Shown here: positions 5,371-64,000 of the stretch, in pieces
Layout: every line of letters begins with the position of its first letter
How positions within the stretch are numbered: position 1 is the first letter of the stretch
Source of the DNA: a virus
Lineage: Duplodnaviria; Caudoviricetes
Reading direction: 5' to 3' (one strand)
IMG/VR virus record: IMGVR_UViG_3300021962_000022
DNA: 64,000 nt
Translations under genes and position numbers: made by a program
Notes under the pieces: model-generated
Told to the model about the DNA's origin: nothing
What the model saw: the letters and a program-made list of their open reading frames with translations, nothing else
Database searches by the model: none

Positions 5371-6129
5371 ATGGATAAATACATTAAAAATATTATTGAG
5401 GAAACTTTTGCGTCCAAAAAACAACAAAGATTCTTTTATGCCAAGGCGAACGACAAATCAACATCAAAGAAAGAAAGAAACAAATGGTCCAAATGGGCTA
5501 AAGAATATTCTGACGATACCGACTTTGAAAAAATACCAGAAAAGGTTGAAACTGAGGTAGATGAAATAGTTGACGAAAAAGGTAATATCGCTAGAAGAAA
5601 AACACCAAATACAAAATCAAGTAAAGGTGGTTCAAAATCAACGACTGACAAAGTGGTATACACTGGAGCTGGGTCAATGGGTATTCACGGTGTTCATGGT
5701 ACTCACACATCTTTAAGATATTGGGCGGAATCTGATTTAAGTAAAGCTTTAGGTTATAAAAATACTTTGGGTCAAGATGAGGACATTGAAGATGCATATG
5801 AATATTTTGAAGATGACCTTGGTATGGGTGATGATGAAAGTAAAGAAAGATTATCATCATATGGTTACGATGAAAATTTAAAAGGTGATAAAGTAAGATT
5901 AATAGAAAACCCAAAAAAATTTGTAAAAGATTACGTTGAAAGTGTCATAAGAAAAAAATCATCCTCAGAGGATTTGGTTAAAAAAGACCAAACCGAAGAC
6001 ATTAAGGGTGAATTAAATCCAATTATCAAAAGACAAATCACTTCTTTAAAAAATACTTTAGTTAAAAATAATTTGTCAGTTGAGGATGTAATTGACATTC
6101 TTAAATCAGAAGACGAAACCGATGAATAA
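5371..6129 (+). CDS. Hypothetical protein
   Basis: 252-aa ORF, first of a tightly packed + strand run. Confidence 0.75.
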   Translation: MDKYIKNIIEETFASKKQQRFFYAKANDKSTSKKERNKWSKWAKEYSDDTDFEKIPEKVETEVDEIVDEKGNIARRKTPNTKSSKGGSKSTTDKVVYTGAGSMGIHGVHGTHTSLRYWAESDLSKALGYKNTLGQDEDIEDAYEYFEDDLGMGDDESKERLSSYGYDENLKGDKVRLIENPKKFVKDYVESVIRKKSSSEDLVKKDQTEDIKGELNPIIKRQITSLKNTLVKNNLSVEDVIDILKSEDETDE

Positions 6130-6619
6130 AGAATTAAAAGGAAGGATTTTTGATATTCCTCAGGACATTTTAGATAAGATAAACCATACAGTAGTTGGTT
6201 TAAATAGTGAAAATGTGCGTGGTATTCAAAGAGCTAAAAAACTTTTAATCGATAAAAAAGTAAAATACGGTCAACTCAAGAGGATAATTCATGATATTCA
6301 AAACATGGATAAAATGAATGAAAAAGTTAAATATGACTTATGCGGTGGAGATTTGATGGAAAAATGGGCTAAACAATTTTTACAAGGAGAAAGAGATTTA
6401 ATAAGTAATAGGAAAGACTCCAAAAAAAGGGCGGATGATATAACATCAATGACTGGTGAGAGAAAAAACAGTCACTTGAAATCACACACAAAAAGATTTA
6501 GTTTCAAAGTCCCAATAAATTTGGTTAAAAGTAATTCCCACAAAACCAGTGTTTCACCTTTAACATCTATGAAACTATTCGAAGAGATTGATAAAATAAA
6601 AAAATTAATTAGTTATTAA
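6122..6619 (+). CDS. Hypothetical protein
   Basis: ORF track starts at 6092; ATG 6122 (MNKELKG) overlaps the previous stop and is the likelier start. Confidence 0.7.
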   Translation: MNKELKGRIFDIPQDILDKINHTVVGLNSENVRGIQRAKKLLIDKKVKYGQLKRIIHDIQNMDKMNEKVKYDLCGGDLMEKWAKQFLQGERDLISNRKDSKKRADDITSMTGERKNSHLKSHTKRFSFKVPINLVKSNSHKTSVSPLTSMKLFEEIDKIKKLISY

Positions 6620-6620
6620 T

Positions 6621-7286
6621 ATGCCAACACAATTAGAAATAATCGGAGACAGAGAAAGAAACCTTCTTGTATCAAGAAATGAATACAACTACGGGGATTT
6701 ATATAGTTCAAGCAATACAGGTGCATTATCAGACGGTGACGAAAGAGGTAAGGGTGAATTAAGTGGTAGTATTGGTTCAAAAACCGATATCGGTGAAAGA
6801 ACCTCATTACAATCCAAAAACATTTATGGACCAACCAATCAGTACGGAAGTGGAAATGCTAACGCACTTTCGGATGGTGATGAAAAAGGTAAAGGAGAGT
6901 TAAGTGGTAATATAGGTTCTAAGACTGATATCACAGAAAGAAACACTCTTGTTGCTAAAAACGTCTACAATAATTCATTTCAATACTCATCAGGTAATCC
7001 TAACGCATTATCAGATGGTGACGAAAGAGGAAGAGGTGAAAACAATTCAGGTGGTGTTGGTACCTTAACCGATATCAATGAAAGAACCACTCTTATTGCT
7101 AAAAATATTTATAACAACAATTTTGGTTACTCTTCTGGTAATCCCAATGCATTGTCAGATGGTGATGAAAAAGGACGAGGTGAAAACAATACAGGAGGTG
7201 TTGGTACTGTAACCGATATTAACGAAAGAACTGTTTTAAAAGCAAAAAATAAATACGGTAGCACAAAAACATATCCCGATTTTTAA
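6621..7286 (+). CDS. Tandem-repeat protein (four ~41-aa units, core ALSDGDE[RK]G[RK]GE)
   Basis: Repeats visible in the translation. Confidence 0.8.
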   Translation: MPTQLEIIGDRERNLLVSRNEYNYGDLYSSSNTGALSDGDERGKGELSGSIGSKTDIGERTSLQSKNIYGPTNQYGSGNANALSDGDEKGKGELSGNIGSKTDITERNTLVAKNVYNNSFQYSSGNPNALSDGDERGRGENNSGGVGTLTDINERTTLIAKNIYNNNFGYSSGNPNALSDGDEKGRGENNTGGVGTVTDINERTVLKAKNKYGSTKTYPDF

Positions 7287-28171: not shown

Positions 28172-28372
28172 ATGATAATCGTAAACGTCAATAAAGAGAA
28201 GAACCTTGAATCTGCATTAAAGAAATACAAATACAAGGTTCAAAAGACTAAACAAAACGATAAATTGAGGGAAAAACAACAATATACTAAACCCTCAGTT
28301 GCTAAAAGAAGTAAAAAGTTAAAAGCTATCTACAAACAACAATTGTTTACGAATCAAGAAAAATCAAATTAA
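28172..28372 (+). CDS. rpsU: Ribosomal protein bS21
   Basis: 66 aa; LESALKKYK.K...LR....YTKPSV.KR...KAIY matches the bS21 pattern, Bacteroidota-like. Confidence 0.9.
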   Translation: MIIVNVNKEKNLESALKKYKYKVQKTKQNDKLREKQQYTKPSVAKRSKKLKAIYKQQLFTNQEKSN

Positions 28373-36262: not shown

Positions 36263-37048
36263 TTACTGTGGTAGGGACAATTTTTTATTTCTGACCTTTG
36301 TTTTTATATCAAATAACTTTTCGATGTAACCATTTCTTCGTAATAACTTGAAAGTTAAATTTTCATACGAATATTCACCACCCACTTCTAATCCAGTTTG
36401 TCTGAACTTCTTTAACTTACTTTTTAGTTCATCTACTTGTTTTATAACGTCATTACCTTCTTCAGCACTTTTTTCCAAACTGTCGATTAGTTTACCATAT
36501 TCTTCACTCTTCTCAAGGATTTTCTTATCGTCTAAGTCAAATGCAGATTCTATTTGTTTAGGTTCAACAACCCAATCATTATTTAAAATAGAATAAACAC
36601 CCGTTGATACACCAGGAGAATCGATGTCTTGAACATAAAACTCCACTTCAAAACCTTTTACAGTGATATCATTTGATGCTGCCCATGATTTTTTCTTAAG
36701 TTCAAAAAACTCTTTTATTATTTCGTGAAAAACAATAGAATTTGATTTTGCAGAATCAAACTCATCTATATCAACTAATATGTGGATATCTAAATCAGAA
36801 TAATTAGACCAATTATAGTTCGCTAATGAACCTGTAAAATGGATATCGTAAATAAAAAAATCAATACCGATAAAATCAAGAAATGAGTTGGTGATTTCTA
36901 AAAGTTTCTCTCTTATTTCTTCTTTTATAACATAAGAATTTTTTGTCTTATTAAAAATTTCCAATGATAGTGAATCCTTAGGTATAAAGGATTTCATTAT
37001 TTCTTTATCTTTTTCAATATCTTCAATAAATTCTCTATAATTTTTCAT
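36263..37048 (-). CDS. Pol-beta-superfamily nucleotidyltransferase-like protein
   Basis: TGSLANYNWSNYSDLDIHI = GS-x(n)-DxD; third acidic site in VEFYVQD. Confidence 0.75.
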   Translation of the reverse strand: MKNYREFIEDIEKDKEIMKSFIPKDSLSLEIFNKTKNSYVIKEEIREKLLEITNSFLDFIGIDFFIYDIHFTGSLANYNWSNYSDLDIHILVDIDEFDSAKSNSIVFHEIIKEFFELKKKSWAASNDITVKGFEVEFYVQDIDSPGVSTGVYSILNNDWVVEPKQIESAFDLDDKKILEKSEEYGKLIDSLEKSAEEGNDVIKQVDELKSKLKKFRQTGLEVGGEYSYENLTFKLLRRNGYIEKLFDIKTKVRNKKLSLPQ

Positions 37049-37290
37049 TTTATCTTTTTGTATTTAAAACTTCTTGAAATGTTTGCGTTAAAATGTTTAC
37101 CCTGTGATTCCGCTTTCTTAAAATCTGTAAACACCTCTAACGGCACTTTTTCATATTCATAAATAGAGCCGTTGTTAAATTCAATCATAAGATTGTTGTC
37201 TTCGGTATTGAAAACCGCTCTACCGATATTTGAAGATGTTACTACCACCTCAATTAAGTTACCTTCCGTTTTTTCTAAAATAATCGCCAT
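37045..37290 (-). CDS. KTSC-domain protein
   Basis: SSNI..AVF....L.IEFNNGSIYEY..VP..VF..F..AESQGKHFNANI. Confidence 0.88.
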   Translation of the reverse strand: MAIILEKTEGNLIEVVVTSSNIGRAVFNTEDNNLMIEFNNGSIYEYEKVPLEVFTDFKKAESQGKHFNANISRSFKYKKIK

Positions 37291-39514: not shown

Positions 39515-39551
39515 ATATTCATACTTTTTAAAAAAACATATATATTTATAT

Positions 39552-39652
39552 TCACACAGGACATCTTTGCCGATTTCCTCTCGTTTTATAGTCTGTGGTG
39601 TTGAAACCACAAAATGACCACAAACCCCCGACTCACCGTTGGGGGTTTTTTA
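39552..39652 (+). ncRNA. Candidate ~100-nt small RNA
   Basis: TATTTATA at 39543-39550, hairpins AGGA/TCCT and GTGGT/ACCAC, and a terminator at 39622-39651; no ORF. Confidence 0.5.
39622..39651 (+). terminator. Rho-independent terminator
   Basis: AAACCCCCGA-CTCACCG-TTGGGGGTTT plus T run. Confidence 0.85.
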
Positions 39653-39704: not shown

Positions 39705-40118
39705 ATGGAATATACAAAAGATTTGATACTTGTTCGTGGTATCCCTGGCTCGGGTAAATCAACTTTGGGTGAGGTAATCCTATACATCCCAAACAACCCG
39801 TTGAAACCTTTATCTGCGGATGATTACTTTATGGATAAAGAGGGTAACTACAATTTCGACCCAACAAAAATTAGGGAAGCTCACAACGACTGCCAACAAA
39901 GATGTGCAAACCTGATGATGAATTCAGTTGTTAGGGTTGTAGTTTCAAATACATTTACACAAGAATGGGAAATGGAACCATATTTTGAAATGGCTCGTAG
40001 ATATGGTTATAGAGTCCACACTGTTATTGTTGAAAATAGACATGGTGGGTCTAACGTTCATGGTGTTCCTGAGGACAAATTAGAAATAATGAAAAATCGA
40101 TTTGAGGTCAAGTTGTGA
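39705..40118 (+). CDS. P-loop kinase (AAA_33 / polynucleotide kinase-like)
   Basis: LVRGIPGSGKST, SADDYF, VVVSNTF, NVHGVP. Confidence 0.85.
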   Translation: MEYTKDLILVRGIPGSGKSTLGEVILYIPNNPLKPLSADDYFMDKEGNYNFDPTKIREAHNDCQQRCANLMMNSVVRVVVSNTFTQEWEMEPYFEMARRYGYRVHTVIVENRHGGSNVHGVPEDKLEIMKNRFEVKL

Positions 40119-41185
40119 TAGATAGACTCGAAAAATATCATGAAGATGGGTTGTTAGTAAAACAAACCCACCCAACTAAAGATTTGTACATTTGGAATTA
40201 CACACCAAGAGTACAATATGAATCTTTATGGGATGATATTACTATGCAATGTCGTGGACTTATTACAACTCATTCGGGAGAAGTTATATCAAGACCATTC
40301 GGTAAGTTTTTTAATTATGAAGAGGTTATTGATAAGGATATGATTCCATGGGACAGTGAGTATGCTCATGTGCAAACAAAAATGGATGGTTCTCTCGGTA
40401 TACTATTTTTCTATGATGGTGAATGGATTATGTCGACAAGGGGTTCATTCACATCTGAACAATCAATTCGAGGATTAGAGATTCTAAAATCAAAATACGA
40501 TTTGGGGAGGTTTTCTAAAGAATTTACTTATCTATGTGAAATAATTTATCCTGAGAATAGAATCGTAGTAAATTACGGTGAGGATAAAATCACATTTTTG
40601 TCTATAACCACTCCTGAAGGAGAATTGAATTGGGCTACATCAAATTTGATATTTCACTCATCAAATATCAAGGAAGAAGATATTGTCAATAGTACTATGG
40701 TCACTTTTAATAAAGAAACTTTCGATACTTACAAAAAACTAAACTTACCAAATGAGGAGGGATTTGTCATTAGATTTTATCCATCTAATTTTAGGATGAA
40801 GATAAAATTTGAGGAGTATGTTCGTTTACATAGAATTTTAACCAACGTATCAAATAGAGATATTTGGGAAGTACTTCGTACCAATGGTGACATGAAAGAA
40901 ATACTTGATGGTGTACCAGATGAATTTTATGATTGGGTCCGTAAAACAAAAGAGGATTTATTATTCCAATACAAACACTTGGAACGTGAATACCAATGGA
41001 TTTTTAAAATCATAAATCGAGCCCCGAACATAGAAAATCGAGCTGTTTTCGCTGAGTACGCAAAGAGATATAAACACCCCTCAATATTGTTTAATATGTT
41101 AGATAATAAGGATTACTCCCAACAAATTTGGAAGTTGATTTATCCATCATATTCGAAACCATTTAAAACAAATGAAGAGAATTAG
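40115..41185 (+). CDS. RNA ligase, T4 Rnl1-like
   Basis: CRGLI, RPFGKFFN, KMDGSLG (adenylated Lys), EII, EGFV, MKIK. Confidence 0.9.
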   Translation: MIDRLEKYHEDGLLVKQTHPTKDLYIWNYTPRVQYESLWDDITMQCRGLITTHSGEVISRPFGKFFNYEEVIDKDMIPWDSEYAHVQTKMDGSLGILFFYDGEWIMSTRGSFTSEQSIRGLEILKSKYDLGRFSKEFTYLCEIIYPENRIVVNYGEDKITFLSITTPEGELNWATSNLIFHSSNIKEEDIVNSTMVTFNKETFDTYKKLNLPNEEGFVIRFYPSNFRMKIKFEEYVRLHRILTNVSNRDIWEVLRTNGDMKEILDGVPDEFYDWVRKTKEDLLFQYKHLEREYQWIFKIINRAPNIENRAVFAEYAKRYKHPSILFNMLDNKDYSQQIWKLIYPSYSKPFKTNEEN

Positions 41186-41612
41186 TAAGAAGAATTATAC
41201 AATGAAAACGAGAATTTATTTAGACGATGTAAGAACCCCCATCGAAAAAGACCAATGGGTTGTTGTTAGAAATTACGAAGAGTTTGTAAATAAAGTTAGT
41301 GAAATTGGTTTGGAGAACATATCTCTAATATCATTGGACCACGATTTAGGTGAAACAGCAATGGCCGAATGGCATCGTAATGTTTATCACCACTATGAGT
41401 TAGATTATGACAACATCTTGGAAAAAACCGGAATGGATTGTACCAAATGGTTGGTTGAACAATGGATGAATGGTAAACCCGTGGTTGACGTTGTTGTTCA
41501 TTCCGCAAACGCTATTGGTAGCGGTAATATGATGGGTTACATAAACAACTACAGACACATTAATCGACTACCTCAGAACTGTATTAGAGTTCAAATTGAA
41601 CATACTGTGTAA
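41172..41612 (+). CDS. Cyclic-phosphate-processing receiver-like domain protein
   Basis: IYLDDVRTP, SLDHDLG, KTGMDC..WL, VHSAN..G..NM; alternative start at 41202. Confidence 0.75.
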   Translation: MKRISKKNYTMKTRIYLDDVRTPIEKDQWVVVRNYEEFVNKVSEIGLENISLISLDHDLGETAMAEWHRNVYHHYELDYDNILEKTGMDCTKWLVEQWMNGKPVVDVVVHSANAIGSGNMMGYINNYRHINRLPQNCIRVQIEHTV

Positions 41613-54097: not shown

Positions 54098-54300
54098 AAG
54101 AAACATCCTTACAGAAGGTGATAATGCTTCACTGAAAGGACTACTGACTTCCAAGTGGGTCGCAACCACAATCGGAAGGTACGACACGGCTCAGTAGACT
54201 CTGTAATGGACCCTGATCTATGGTGCACACATAACAGGTGATGGGGAACAAACCATCGGTAAAATCTAAACCTACGGTGAGCGTAGAAGGATTGTTTCTT
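54098..54300 (+). ncRNA. Unassigned ~200-nt multi-helix RNA E
   Basis: AAGAAACA-TCCT/AGGA-T-TGTTTCTT ends; TACAGA/TCTGTA; CTACTGA/TCAGTAG; CTTCC/GGAAG; CCTG/CAGG; GATGG/CCATC; CTACG/CGTAG. Confidence 0.65.
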
Positions 54301-62590: not shown

Positions 62591-62651
62591 AATTTTGTTT
62601 TTTTAGTTAATTTATATAACAATAAATATCACGAGTAATGGTAAAGTCGTT

Positions 62652-62900: not shown

Positions 62901-63015
62901 TGGGAGGTATATAACGAACAAAGGAGTCGATTAAGACTCCCTTGCCGAGATGTGGATACCTCCTTTCGTTTTTTAGTCTAATTATCGTCTCATGGCGACC
63001 AAACCATTTGACTCT
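62901..63015. ncRNA. Structured element upstream of the Zn-ribbon/DUF2589 operon
   Basis: GGAGGTAT/ATACCTCC enclosing GGAGTC/GACTCC; shares TTGCCGA and a 17/19-nt block with 39567-39594. Confidence 0.5.
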
Positions 63016-63041
63016 AATTATAAATATCTTGTAATCTTAAA

Positions 63042-63992
63042 TTATACGTATTTTTTTGCTAAAGTTTTTAATAAACCTATACCAATTACGCCCGAAAGTG
63101 GATTAAACCCTGAACCCTGTCCTTGAGATTCAATTTGACTTAAATCTTCAGTGTTAGTGTTCTGTGCAATATATTGACTAACTTGTGGGTCATTCGCTAA
63201 CGCATCTCTGAATTTAGAGTTATTCATCATATCATCCAATTGGTCCATACTTAAATCGGGTAAACCAAACATTTTAGCAACCTCACTAGCCGCAACTATT
63301 GACCTGAACATATCTCGTCTTGATTGTCTGCCCGCTCTTGTGATATTCCACCATTTACTTAACCAATTACTTGGTTCCATGCCTTTTTTTGCAACATACT
63401 GTGCTAATTTTTCATCTCTGAAAAACGCTTTCATTCCTGTAGCAACAGGTCCTTTACCCATCATCATTTTAAGATACCCTGCGGGTTGTTGAGTTGCAAT
63501 TTCTTTACCAATTCTTTGTGTCATTTGAACTGGTCTTAATTTTGATGCTGTTGCTTTTAATGACCCGAGACCATCTGACATTTTTTGTGCCCAAGATTTG
63601 TTAATACTACCCACTGAATTAATTGTTTGTTTAACCCCTGCGTCGTCAAAATGTTTTGACATTTTTAAAAATTGTTCTTTAGCACTTGGATTCTGCATCA
63701 AATATTTTGCCAAATCATCACTACTTCTCATAGCGGTTTTTCCAGCAATACCAGCACCCTTTAACACTCTAATAAATGGTTTCGCAATAAAGTCACCCAC
63801 GGTTGGTATTAAAGCGATTAACATTAGTGCAGCATAGATATATTCTTTCTTATAGATGTATCTAATAATTAAGATTATATCGGCAATCTCACCAATAACA
63901 GGGACAAATCCTGCAACCATTAAAATATTCTCAAGAGTATCCTCTTTTAATACTTGTCTATTTTCTAATATTTGTTTTTTAGTAAGTTTCAT
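63042..63992 (-). CDS. Hypothetical protein with N-terminal pre-toxin TG-like segment
   Basis: VAGFVPVIGEIADI...YAALMLIALIPTVGD; 316 aa. Confidence 0.6.
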   Translation of the reverse strand: MKLTKKQILENRQVLKEDTLENILMVAGFVPVIGEIADIILIIRYIYKKEYIYAALMLIALIPTVGDFIAKPFIRVLKGAGIAGKTAMRSSDDLAKYLMQNPSAKEQFLKMSKHFDDAGVKQTINSVGSINKSWAQKMSDGLGSLKATASKLRPVQMTQRIGKEIATQQPAGYLKMMMGKGPVATGMKAFFRDEKLAQYVAKKGMEPSNWLSKWWNITRAGRQSRRDMFRSIVAASEVAKMFGLPDLSMDQLDDMMNNSKFRDALANDPQVSQYIAQNTNTEDLSQIESQGQGSGFNPLSGVIGIGLLKTLAKKYV

Positions 63993-64000
63993 TAATGAAT

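Follow-up and report, generated by a model that had tools for sequence, protein, structure and literature searches.

Two structured small RNA genes of a probable jumbo T4-like phage as a candidate trans-encoded antisense pair

The c4 RNA of phages P1 and P7 and the CI RNA of P4 recognize their targets via two short segments that are located in loops or single strands and that change along with the target sites between related phages. The targets reside in the same operon transcript, out of which the RNA itself is processed, and what is controlled is an antirepressor or immunity. DapZ and MicL of the enterobacteria are encoded by sRNA genes that are embedded in a 3'-UTR, have an internal promoter and act on target mRNAs. 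To our knowledge, little has been established about the regulatory RNAs of virulent or jumbo phages, and next to nothing where the host belongs to the Bacteroidota, bacteria that have no Hfq and mostly ignore Shine-Dalgarno (SD) sequences. The c4 antisense RNA of P1/P7 and the CI RNA of P4 have been summarised, with the C4 family (RF01695), in PMC12197685. In addition, sponge pairs have been described, such as the prophage-encoded AgvB versus GcvB, SprY versus RNAIII and SroC versus GcvB (PMC12197685, PMC4474525).

We have analyzed two loci, A and B, within a 64,000-nucleotide stretch of viral DNA (referred to as the window), and they resemble each of these systems in part. The likeness to C4 is functional only and lies in recognition by two separate segments, each of which covaries with its target segment; membership of that family was rejected, as no C4 match was obtained up to an E-value of 10 and the partner is found neither in the same transcript nor in the vicinity. 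In contrast to c4 and CI, the partner is a separate gene at a distance of 10-27 kb, with its own promoter and 3' stem. With the sponge pairs A and B have in common that the RNAs are separately encoded, that the complementarity consists of short imperfect blocks, that one RNA is thought to neutralise the other and that one or both partners are encoded by a phage; in fact, B appears to carry a site complementary to the seed of A. They differ from those pairs in that both partners reside in a single jumbo phage of the lytic type, are inherited and lost together and have the same late-type box, and they have no sequence or Rfam relationship to the known pairs. Like DapZ and MicL, A and B are situated directly behind a protein gene without a terminator in between, have a promoter of their own and share the terminator of the mRNA, although they belong to a phage and to a different phylum, and the targets of DapZ and MicL are mRNAs rather than an sRNA of the same genome. 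Neither RNA falls within any family of Rfam 15, the best permissive scores being terminator-based and amounting to 25.4 bits versus the 55 needed (A) and 14.3 versus 41 (B), and no report of small RNAs in phages of this kind emerged from our literature search.

Positions 1-63083 of the window match an IMG/VR virus record of 115,864 b (38% complete, 33.6% G+C) bar two single-base differences, at 54216 and 60438, and the window extends 917 b further (63084-64000); it therefore derives from a longer, near-identical record. The window and this overlapping record together formed the 116.8 kb that was searched. A 316-aa ORF at 63042-63992 (-) has no Pfam match. Relatives of the phage reach 310-335 kb, and the source of the window is probably a virulent-looking jumbo T4-like phage of about 300 kb with a Bacteroidota host. 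Its gene starts are preceded by Bacteroidota-type TAnnTTTG elements or by a TATTTATW box, and SD sequences are absent from the phage genes examined. The window contains 27 tRNA genes and a tmRNA gene, and nothing else from Rfam at gathering thresholds. Its protein genes include a ClpB-like ATPase and an RNA-repair cassette with a Pnk-like kinase, an Rnl1 ligase and a cREC_REC protein. This cassette (39705-41612, +; AAA_33 kinase, T4 Rnl1-type RNA ligase and cyclic-phosphate processing receiver protein) lies directly 3' of sRNA A behind a host-type TAtaTTTG element. The stretch upstream of the ClpB-like gene (36263-37290, -) encodes a KTSC-domain protein and a second protein, whose nucleotidyltransferase-like matches are weak. 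The phage also has a gene for bS21 (28173-28339, +; PF01165, 40.9 bits), and no SD, which as a site could be masked by A, was found before its ATG. Genes for bS21 are present in the relatives G004, G009 and G022 as well, so that their presence does not follow that of the A/B pair. Freshwater Bacteroidetes-infecting myophages of up to 331 kb have been reported to encode bS21 and to express it late (PMC9723584), and the phage studied here matches that group. A megablast of the locus against cultured phage records gave no match, and a tblastn with the ClpB-like protein gave matches of at most 54% identity to huge uncultured phages and to unrelated hosts, which is uninformative on the host.

The initial annotation had proposed, on the basis of the window alone, that a + strand sRNA at A is complementary to the leader of an operon 23 kb away. 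The sequence elements to which it referred are all present, namely the box TATTTATA at 39543-39550 (+), TTGCCGA at 39567-39573 and TCCTCTCGTTTTATAGTCT at 39576-39594 at locus A, and, on the + strand at locus B, TTGCCGA at 62942-62948 and TCCTTTCGTTTTTTAGTCT at 62961-62979 (a 17/19 match). The boxes indeed point in opposite directions, as TATAAATA at 63019-63026 on the + strand equals TATTTATA on the - strand. One 17/19 match is expected by chance somewhere in 64 kb, and the match alone proves little. Independent evidence was therefore sought in a scan for partners, in the pairing across genomes and in conserved structure. The search for further copies that had been suggested located the degenerate 19-mer at these two sites only, in the window plus the 115,864-b contig.

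The box itself, TATTTATW, reads on its opposite strand as the T4 late promoter word TATAAATA and sits 3-37 nt before many genes. It occurs 42 times in the 116.8 kb, with 27 copies at most 60 nt upstream of a gene in the sense orientation versus 6 in the opposite-orientation control. Thus, the orientation of the box is strongly tied to the direction of the genes, which supports the strands assigned to the transcripts of A and B. The only intergenic copies without a gene behind them in the 116.8 kb are those at 39543 (+) and 63026 (-). The former, the late-type promoter box of sRNA A (39543-39550, +), was read directly and has the form ATATATTTATAT in relatives; the latter, the promoter box of sRNA B (63019-63026, -), has the form GATATTTATA. 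In most relatives a TTGACUUUUU-like stretch is found about 20 nt 5' of the box of A, and the window has TTCATACTTTTT in the corresponding region (39515-39542); no counterpart was found upstream of the box of B. The stretch may serve as an additional promoter element, or as the site of a regulator by which the ratio of A to B is fixed.

Relatives of locus A were collected by fetching 80 loci with the ClpB-like protein (72-100% amino-acid identity), and in about 77 of these 80 the ClpB-like gene is followed by the conserved element. Its core motif was found in at least 119 IMG/VR contigs. In seven relatives (L028, L032, L034, L046, L048, L063 and L074; around 6000-6700) a gene is inserted between the ClpB-like gene and A, whose product opens with a GDSF motif and is SGNH/GDSL-hydrolase-like; A is still present 3' of the insert. 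The RNA of about 95 nt (39557-39651, +), of which the 5' end was placed at the onset of conservation and the 3' end at the T-run, displays a conserved order of box ATATATTTATAT, some 7 nt, hairpin P1, the U-rich strand CCUUU(U)CGUUUU, hairpin P2, GACC and terminator. In alignment A2 (45 distinct sequences) 97.7% of the cells are paired, versus 30-60% when the partner columns are slid, and compensatory change is seen at 11 of the 21 pairs; none of 500 shuffles reached the observed values. CM R1 gives 104.5 bits at 39550-39651, with no comparable match in the rest of the window.

The individual elements of A are equally well defined. Hairpin P1 (39558-39579, +; AGGA..UC[UUUGCC]GA..UCCU, and AGGU-UC[UUUGYC]GA-ACCU across relatives) covaries at pair 13:28 (UA 29, AU 12, GU 2, CG 1). 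Its loop and 3' side hold pairing block 1, CUUUGCCGA (39565-39573, +). Pairing block 2, UCCUCUCGUUUUAUAGUCU (39576-39594, +), is U-rich and single-stranded. Hairpin P2 (39595-39610, +; GUGGU[GUUGAA]ACCAC) has an invariant loop and covaries strongly, with both sides changing at all five pairs and a closing pair that is GC in 22, UA in 10 and AU in 4 sequences. The single-stranded linker GACC (39616-39619, +) is nearly invariant in A2 and complementary to GGUC in the loop of the 5' hairpin of B. The terminator that had been claimed for A was recovered as a terminator-like hairpin plus T-run at 39622-39651 (+), with compensatory change at 5 of 10 pairs. Its G-U pairs (in 26 of 45 sequences at pair 102:114) are possible only in RNA of the + strand, which fixes the strand of A as +. 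As there is no other terminator between 39514 and this hairpin, it also ends the ClpB-like transcript. Judged by its own box, terminator and conserved covarying structure, locus A is a real small RNA gene, and the + strand sRNA proposed at the outset is supported.

For locus B, 80 loci were fetched with the DUF2589 protein and the element was found upstream of the Zn-ribbon gene in a subset. The corresponding sRNA of about 100 nt (62912-63012, -) is recognized by CM R2 with 54-112 bits in 21 related genomes. The conserved order comprises the box GATATTTATA, some 6 nt, a hairpin with the invariant loop UUUGGUCR, GAUAA, a variable stretch and AAACGAAAGGAGGU; then come the short hairpin GAGGU...AUCUC and, last, the long 3' stem GCAAAGGGGUC[loop]GACCUCUUUGU, which has UCGUU as its tail. 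In alignment A5 (22 sequences) 87.8% of the cells are paired versus 40-58% with the partner columns slid, and the compensatory change at 14 pairs was reached by none of 500 shuffles. The many G-U pairs of B are possible only in RNA of the - strand, and B is therefore assigned to that strand. Conservation ends immediately 3' of the tail UUUGUUCGUU.

The 5' hairpin of B (62987-63012, -) has the invariant loop UUUGGUCG (63003-62996) and shows compensatory change at 8 of its 9 pairs; UGG/CCA is for instance replaced by UAC/GUA in one clade, and UUGGUC in the loop is invariant throughout A5. It is followed by block 2', AGACUAAAAAACGAAAGGA (62961-62979, -), complementary to 39576-39594 of A, and by a predicted internal hairpin between the blocks, GAGGU[AUCCAC]AUCUC (62947-62962, -), of which both arms are nearly invariant; in the sole variant, that of G028 with GAGAG, an A-U pair takes the place of a G-U pair. 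Block 1', UCGGCAAGGG (62939-62948, -), is complementary to 39564-39573 of A and makes up, in the predicted fold of free B, the 5' strand at the base of the 3' stem. This 3' stem-loop, GGCAAGGGAGUC[UUAAUC]GACUCCUUUGUU with the tail CGUU (62912-62945, -), has 97.9% of its cells paired and is likely a terminator. A simple terminator scan of the window did not flag it; it may be leaky in this phage, with read-through into the Zn-ribbon gene as a possibility. The 3' end of B is cleaner in G006, where GGGUC[UUCG]GACC is followed by a U-tract. The clade with a TTGTCGA-type A has a second strong hairpin, AAACCCATC...GATGGGTTT, at most about 10 nt after B (L170, around 1600-1650, which is G006, and L172, which is G009). 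The convergent gene probably terminates here, and read-through from B would be blocked.

The initial annotation regarded B as the leader of the Zn-ribbon/DUF2589 operon. The location holds for the window, where B adjoins that operon, whereas the interpretation has to be changed to an autonomous structured RNA of about 100 nt. The box of B directly adjoins the stop codon of the gene before it, and the genes that follow B are those for the Zn-ribbon and DUF2589 proteins in five genomes (the window, G004, G013, G014 and G015), convergent genes in G006, G008 and G009, and another co-oriented gene in G002 and G016. In relatives without B the Zn-ribbon gene has a box about 14 nt before its ATG, and the DUF2589 gene has its own TATTTATW box at 62628. 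To all appearances, then, locus B is a second conserved structured RNA gene and not merely an operon leader; B does not fit the class of cis-acting leaders or attenuators, as it is not always upstream of and co-oriented with the Zn-ribbon/DUF2589 operon. Both RNAs seem to have the general attributes of trans-encoded sRNAs, that is, an own box, a terminator or 3' stem, a covarying structure and no conserved ORF. With respect to the last point, the alignments of A and B contain indels of 1-2 nt throughout and no conserved ORF, the only short frame of B not being kept in G006. A type I toxin-antitoxin system was rejected, as neither alignment has a conserved ATG-initiated frame.

The complementarity of A and B is organized in two blocks. 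In block 1 the P1 loop of A, CUUUGCCGA, pairs with UCGGCAAG(G) of B, and in block 2 UCCUCUCGUUUUAUAGUCU pairs with AGACUAAAAAACGAAAGGA. The blocks are separated by 2-3 nt in A versus 13-16 nt in B, where the extra nucleotides form the internal hairpin, and since this extra stretch folds on its own the modelled A:B complex would be a three-way junction. When the 5' half of A was scanned against 9,336 windows of 100 nt on both strands of the 116.8 kb, the best non-self partner was the - strand at 62901-63025, with -45.3 kcal/mol as compared to -39.0 for the next best and a mean of -18.1 (sd 4.8); the next-best duplexes are formed by purine-rich coding repeats. No other site with the target core was found in the 117 kb, nor any convincing further target of A therein. 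Moreover, the strand of B that has the same orientation as A yields only -7 to -14 kcal/mol. In four clades, cofolding is 5-13 kcal/mol more favourable than the two RNAs folded separately, and it leaves the GC-rich upper stem and the U-rich tail of the 3' stem of B intact.

Across genomes, cognate A/B pairs outperform shuffled B in 20 of 20 distinct pairs (z from -2.5 to -6.0), and the core CCU(U)UUCGUUU pairs with B without gaps in the same 20. Imperfections do occur, as block 2 of the window itself contains a C-A and an A-A mismatch and block 1 of G008 and G032 one or two C-A mismatches. For the conserved core the difference between cognate and non-cognate combinations is modest (-28.7 versus -25.1 kcal/mol). 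A third and weaker contact, between GACC of A and GGUC in the 5' loop of B, is possible. Taken together with the conserved structure, the scan for partners and these tests across genomes indicate that the complementarity is more than chance. Of the two alternatives offered by the initial annotation, the one of complementary transcripts that act as a trans-acting antisense pair is favoured, with B presumably read from the opposite strand. That A and B are two copies of one orientation-independent element is unlikely, considering that the model of A misses B and that block spacing and promoter distances differ. B was also rejected as a paralogue of A, for R1 run with filters off finds only 39550-39651, and nothing at 62.9 kb even at E=10.

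The two RNAs are linked in their distribution. Both are present in 22 genomes (the window and 21 others), and L095 (333 kb) and L093 are two further cases when the core motif of A is counted. They are 23.4 kb apart on opposite strands in the window and 9.6-27 kb apart in the relatives (9.6 kb in L198). Contigs with only one of the RNAs end before the expected position of the partner (about 10-27 kb, on the appropriate side), with G010 as the sole exception; in this 137-kb fragment (44% complete), which has a divergent A, B was not found with a relaxed model threshold and a pattern search. Both RNAs are absent from five relatives of 94-100% completeness; two of these, G017 and G018, encode a ClpB of 50% identity, and no A-like element was found behind it.

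Several changes are matched between the partners. The Y in the loop of P1 varies jointly with its partner base in B, the combination being C:G in the window, G002, G004 and G013, U:A in G006, G009, G016, G026, G035 and G049, and U:G in G012, G014 and G030. Similarly, the pyrimidine run is CCUUUCG/CGAAAGG or CCUUUUCG/CGAAAAGG, i.e. U3:A3 turned into U4:A4, and G016, which is placed among the clade with four U, has three on both partners. The 3' extension of block 2 reads UAGUCU/AGACUA in the clade of the window, CUCGUU/AACGAA in that of G028 and AUAAGU/ACUUAU in G030. For this variable extension, which carries the signal that is weak over the core, the cognate mean was -3.8 versus -2.5 +/- 0.32 kcal/mol after permutation, a value reached by 1 of 20,000 permutations in a test uncorrected for kinship. 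The sequences are related, and the matched changes therefore represent a handful of events at the level of clades and not twenty. Among the differences between partners there is no clear bias of G-U over C-A (about 8 versus 6 genomes).

In our view A and B are probably a trans-encoded antisense pair, an sRNA and an anti-sRNA, with late-type promoters. The comparative evidence indicates that both genes exist, fold, keep their complementarity, co-occur and share several matched changes; from it we infer transcription, the start sites, pairing in vivo, the role as regulator and the final target of A and B. According to this proposal there would be two independent RNA genes, each behind a late-type TATTTATA box and within the 3' region of the protein gene that precedes it. 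A would display the hairpin loop CUUUGYCGA followed by the U-rich single strand CCUUUCGUUUU, and B would bear both complementary blocks with a small hairpin of its own between them. The two could then anneal via two helices, of about 10 and 11-19 bp, to a three-way junction around the hairpin of B, to which the loop-to-linker contact GGUC:GACC may add, and the pairing would have to open P1 of A and the base of the 3' stem of B. Each RNA would titrate the other, perhaps with subsequent cleavage of the duplex, so that one RNA would serve as anti-sRNA (sponge) to its partner and create a threshold in the late phase of infection. Reciprocal titration, whether or not the duplex is cleaved, is the likeliest outcome but is put forward only tentatively, and the apparent use of the same promoter class at A and B counts against one RNA outnumbering the other.

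A rather unlikely alternative is that B acts in cis, A pairing with the leader as it is being transcribed, the 5' side of the 3' stem included, and altering termination or processing so as to control the Zn-ribbon/DUF2589 genes. The position of B directly upstream of and co-oriented with these genes in the window, G004, G013, G014 and G015 is in line with such a function, as is the location of block 1' within the 3' stem, the lower half of which would be removed by pairing with A. The convergent genes behind B in G006, G008 and G009 and the different gene in G002 and G016 argue against it, and so do the separate boxes of the Zn-ribbon gene in relatives without B and of the DUF2589 gene, the survival of the upper stem and the U-rich tail in the cofold, and the end of conservation at the tail. 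Nevertheless, the simple scan does not call the 3' stem a terminator, and read-through retains some weight for the clade of the window. That the likeness resides in the DNA, as a site for a phage protein or a remnant of recombination, and that RNA pairing is irrelevant, is very unlikely. The blocks do have the same orientation on the DNA, a change of specificity or gene conversion would also produce matched changes, and there is no clear G-U bias. Yet the blocks lie inside what appear to be transcribed, structured RNAs, and relative to the boxes they come in inverted order, at 14 and 25 nt in A and at about 39 and 70 nt in B. Their spacing differs (2-3 versus 13-16 nt), with the extra part of B folding into a hairpin, only two copies exist in 117 kb, and inverted repeats that recombine over a distance of 10-27 kb would flip the segment between them. 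Finally, a chance likeness of two loci in an AT-rich genome is exceedingly improbable. A 17/19 match is expected many times among the position pairs of the 64-kb window according to our estimate, and a test of a pattern chosen post hoc is unfair, but in more than 20 genomes the two loci are complementary, occur together and show matched changes, for which chance does not account.

A further reading concerns the ribosome. At 62953-62970 (-), in block 2' and the internal hairpin, B contains GAAAGGAGGU, a strong extended SD-like word in a phage otherwise devoid of SD sequences. Over 10 nt this word is complementary to the common form of the 16S 3' end. The related AAGGAGG occurs in the window at chance frequency only. 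In Flavobacteriales an extended SD is found essentially on rpsU alone, and it is read by ribosomes that lack bS21 (PMC9976891, PMC7797042). The complementarity to A could be secondary, each RNA acting chiefly on some third party, for example with B offering the rpsU-like extended SD to host 30S subunits without bS21 and A acting on an SD-bearing RNA, which we regard as unlikely. In keeping with this idea, GGAGG is present in 21 of 22 B sequences even though A pairs only with its first two G, the phage genes examined have no SD while the phage encodes bS21 (28173-28339), and block 2 of A resembles the 16S 3' tail, such that A-B pairing would merely tune. However, the same bases form the conserved GAGGU/AUCUC hairpin, which suffices to explain the conservation, and the variant GGAGAG of G028 breaks the SD core while it improves the hairpin. 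Furthermore, no start codon follows GAAAGGAGGU at a fixed distance, and bS21 is also encoded by G022, a relative without either of the two RNAs. The more specific version, in which the host ribosomes normally conceal their anti-SD behind bS21, the A:B duplex or B alone captures or senses the bS21-less 30S, A serves as the switch, and the phage monitors or manipulates the bS21 autoregulation of its host and supplies its own bS21 late, is quite improbable.

For the antisense pair that we favour, the A/B genes, kept and changed together across the clade, point to a yet undescribed RNA-on-RNA control step in late infection. The pair is widespread in freshwater metagenomes and offers a clean and testable case of such control within one viral genome, for which the comparative data provide natural compensatory variants. 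If the SD-like word of B is functional, a phage RNA would be linked to the unusual ribosome biology of the host. If the pair acts as a timer or a threshold, it would constitute an extra regulatory layer in late infection.
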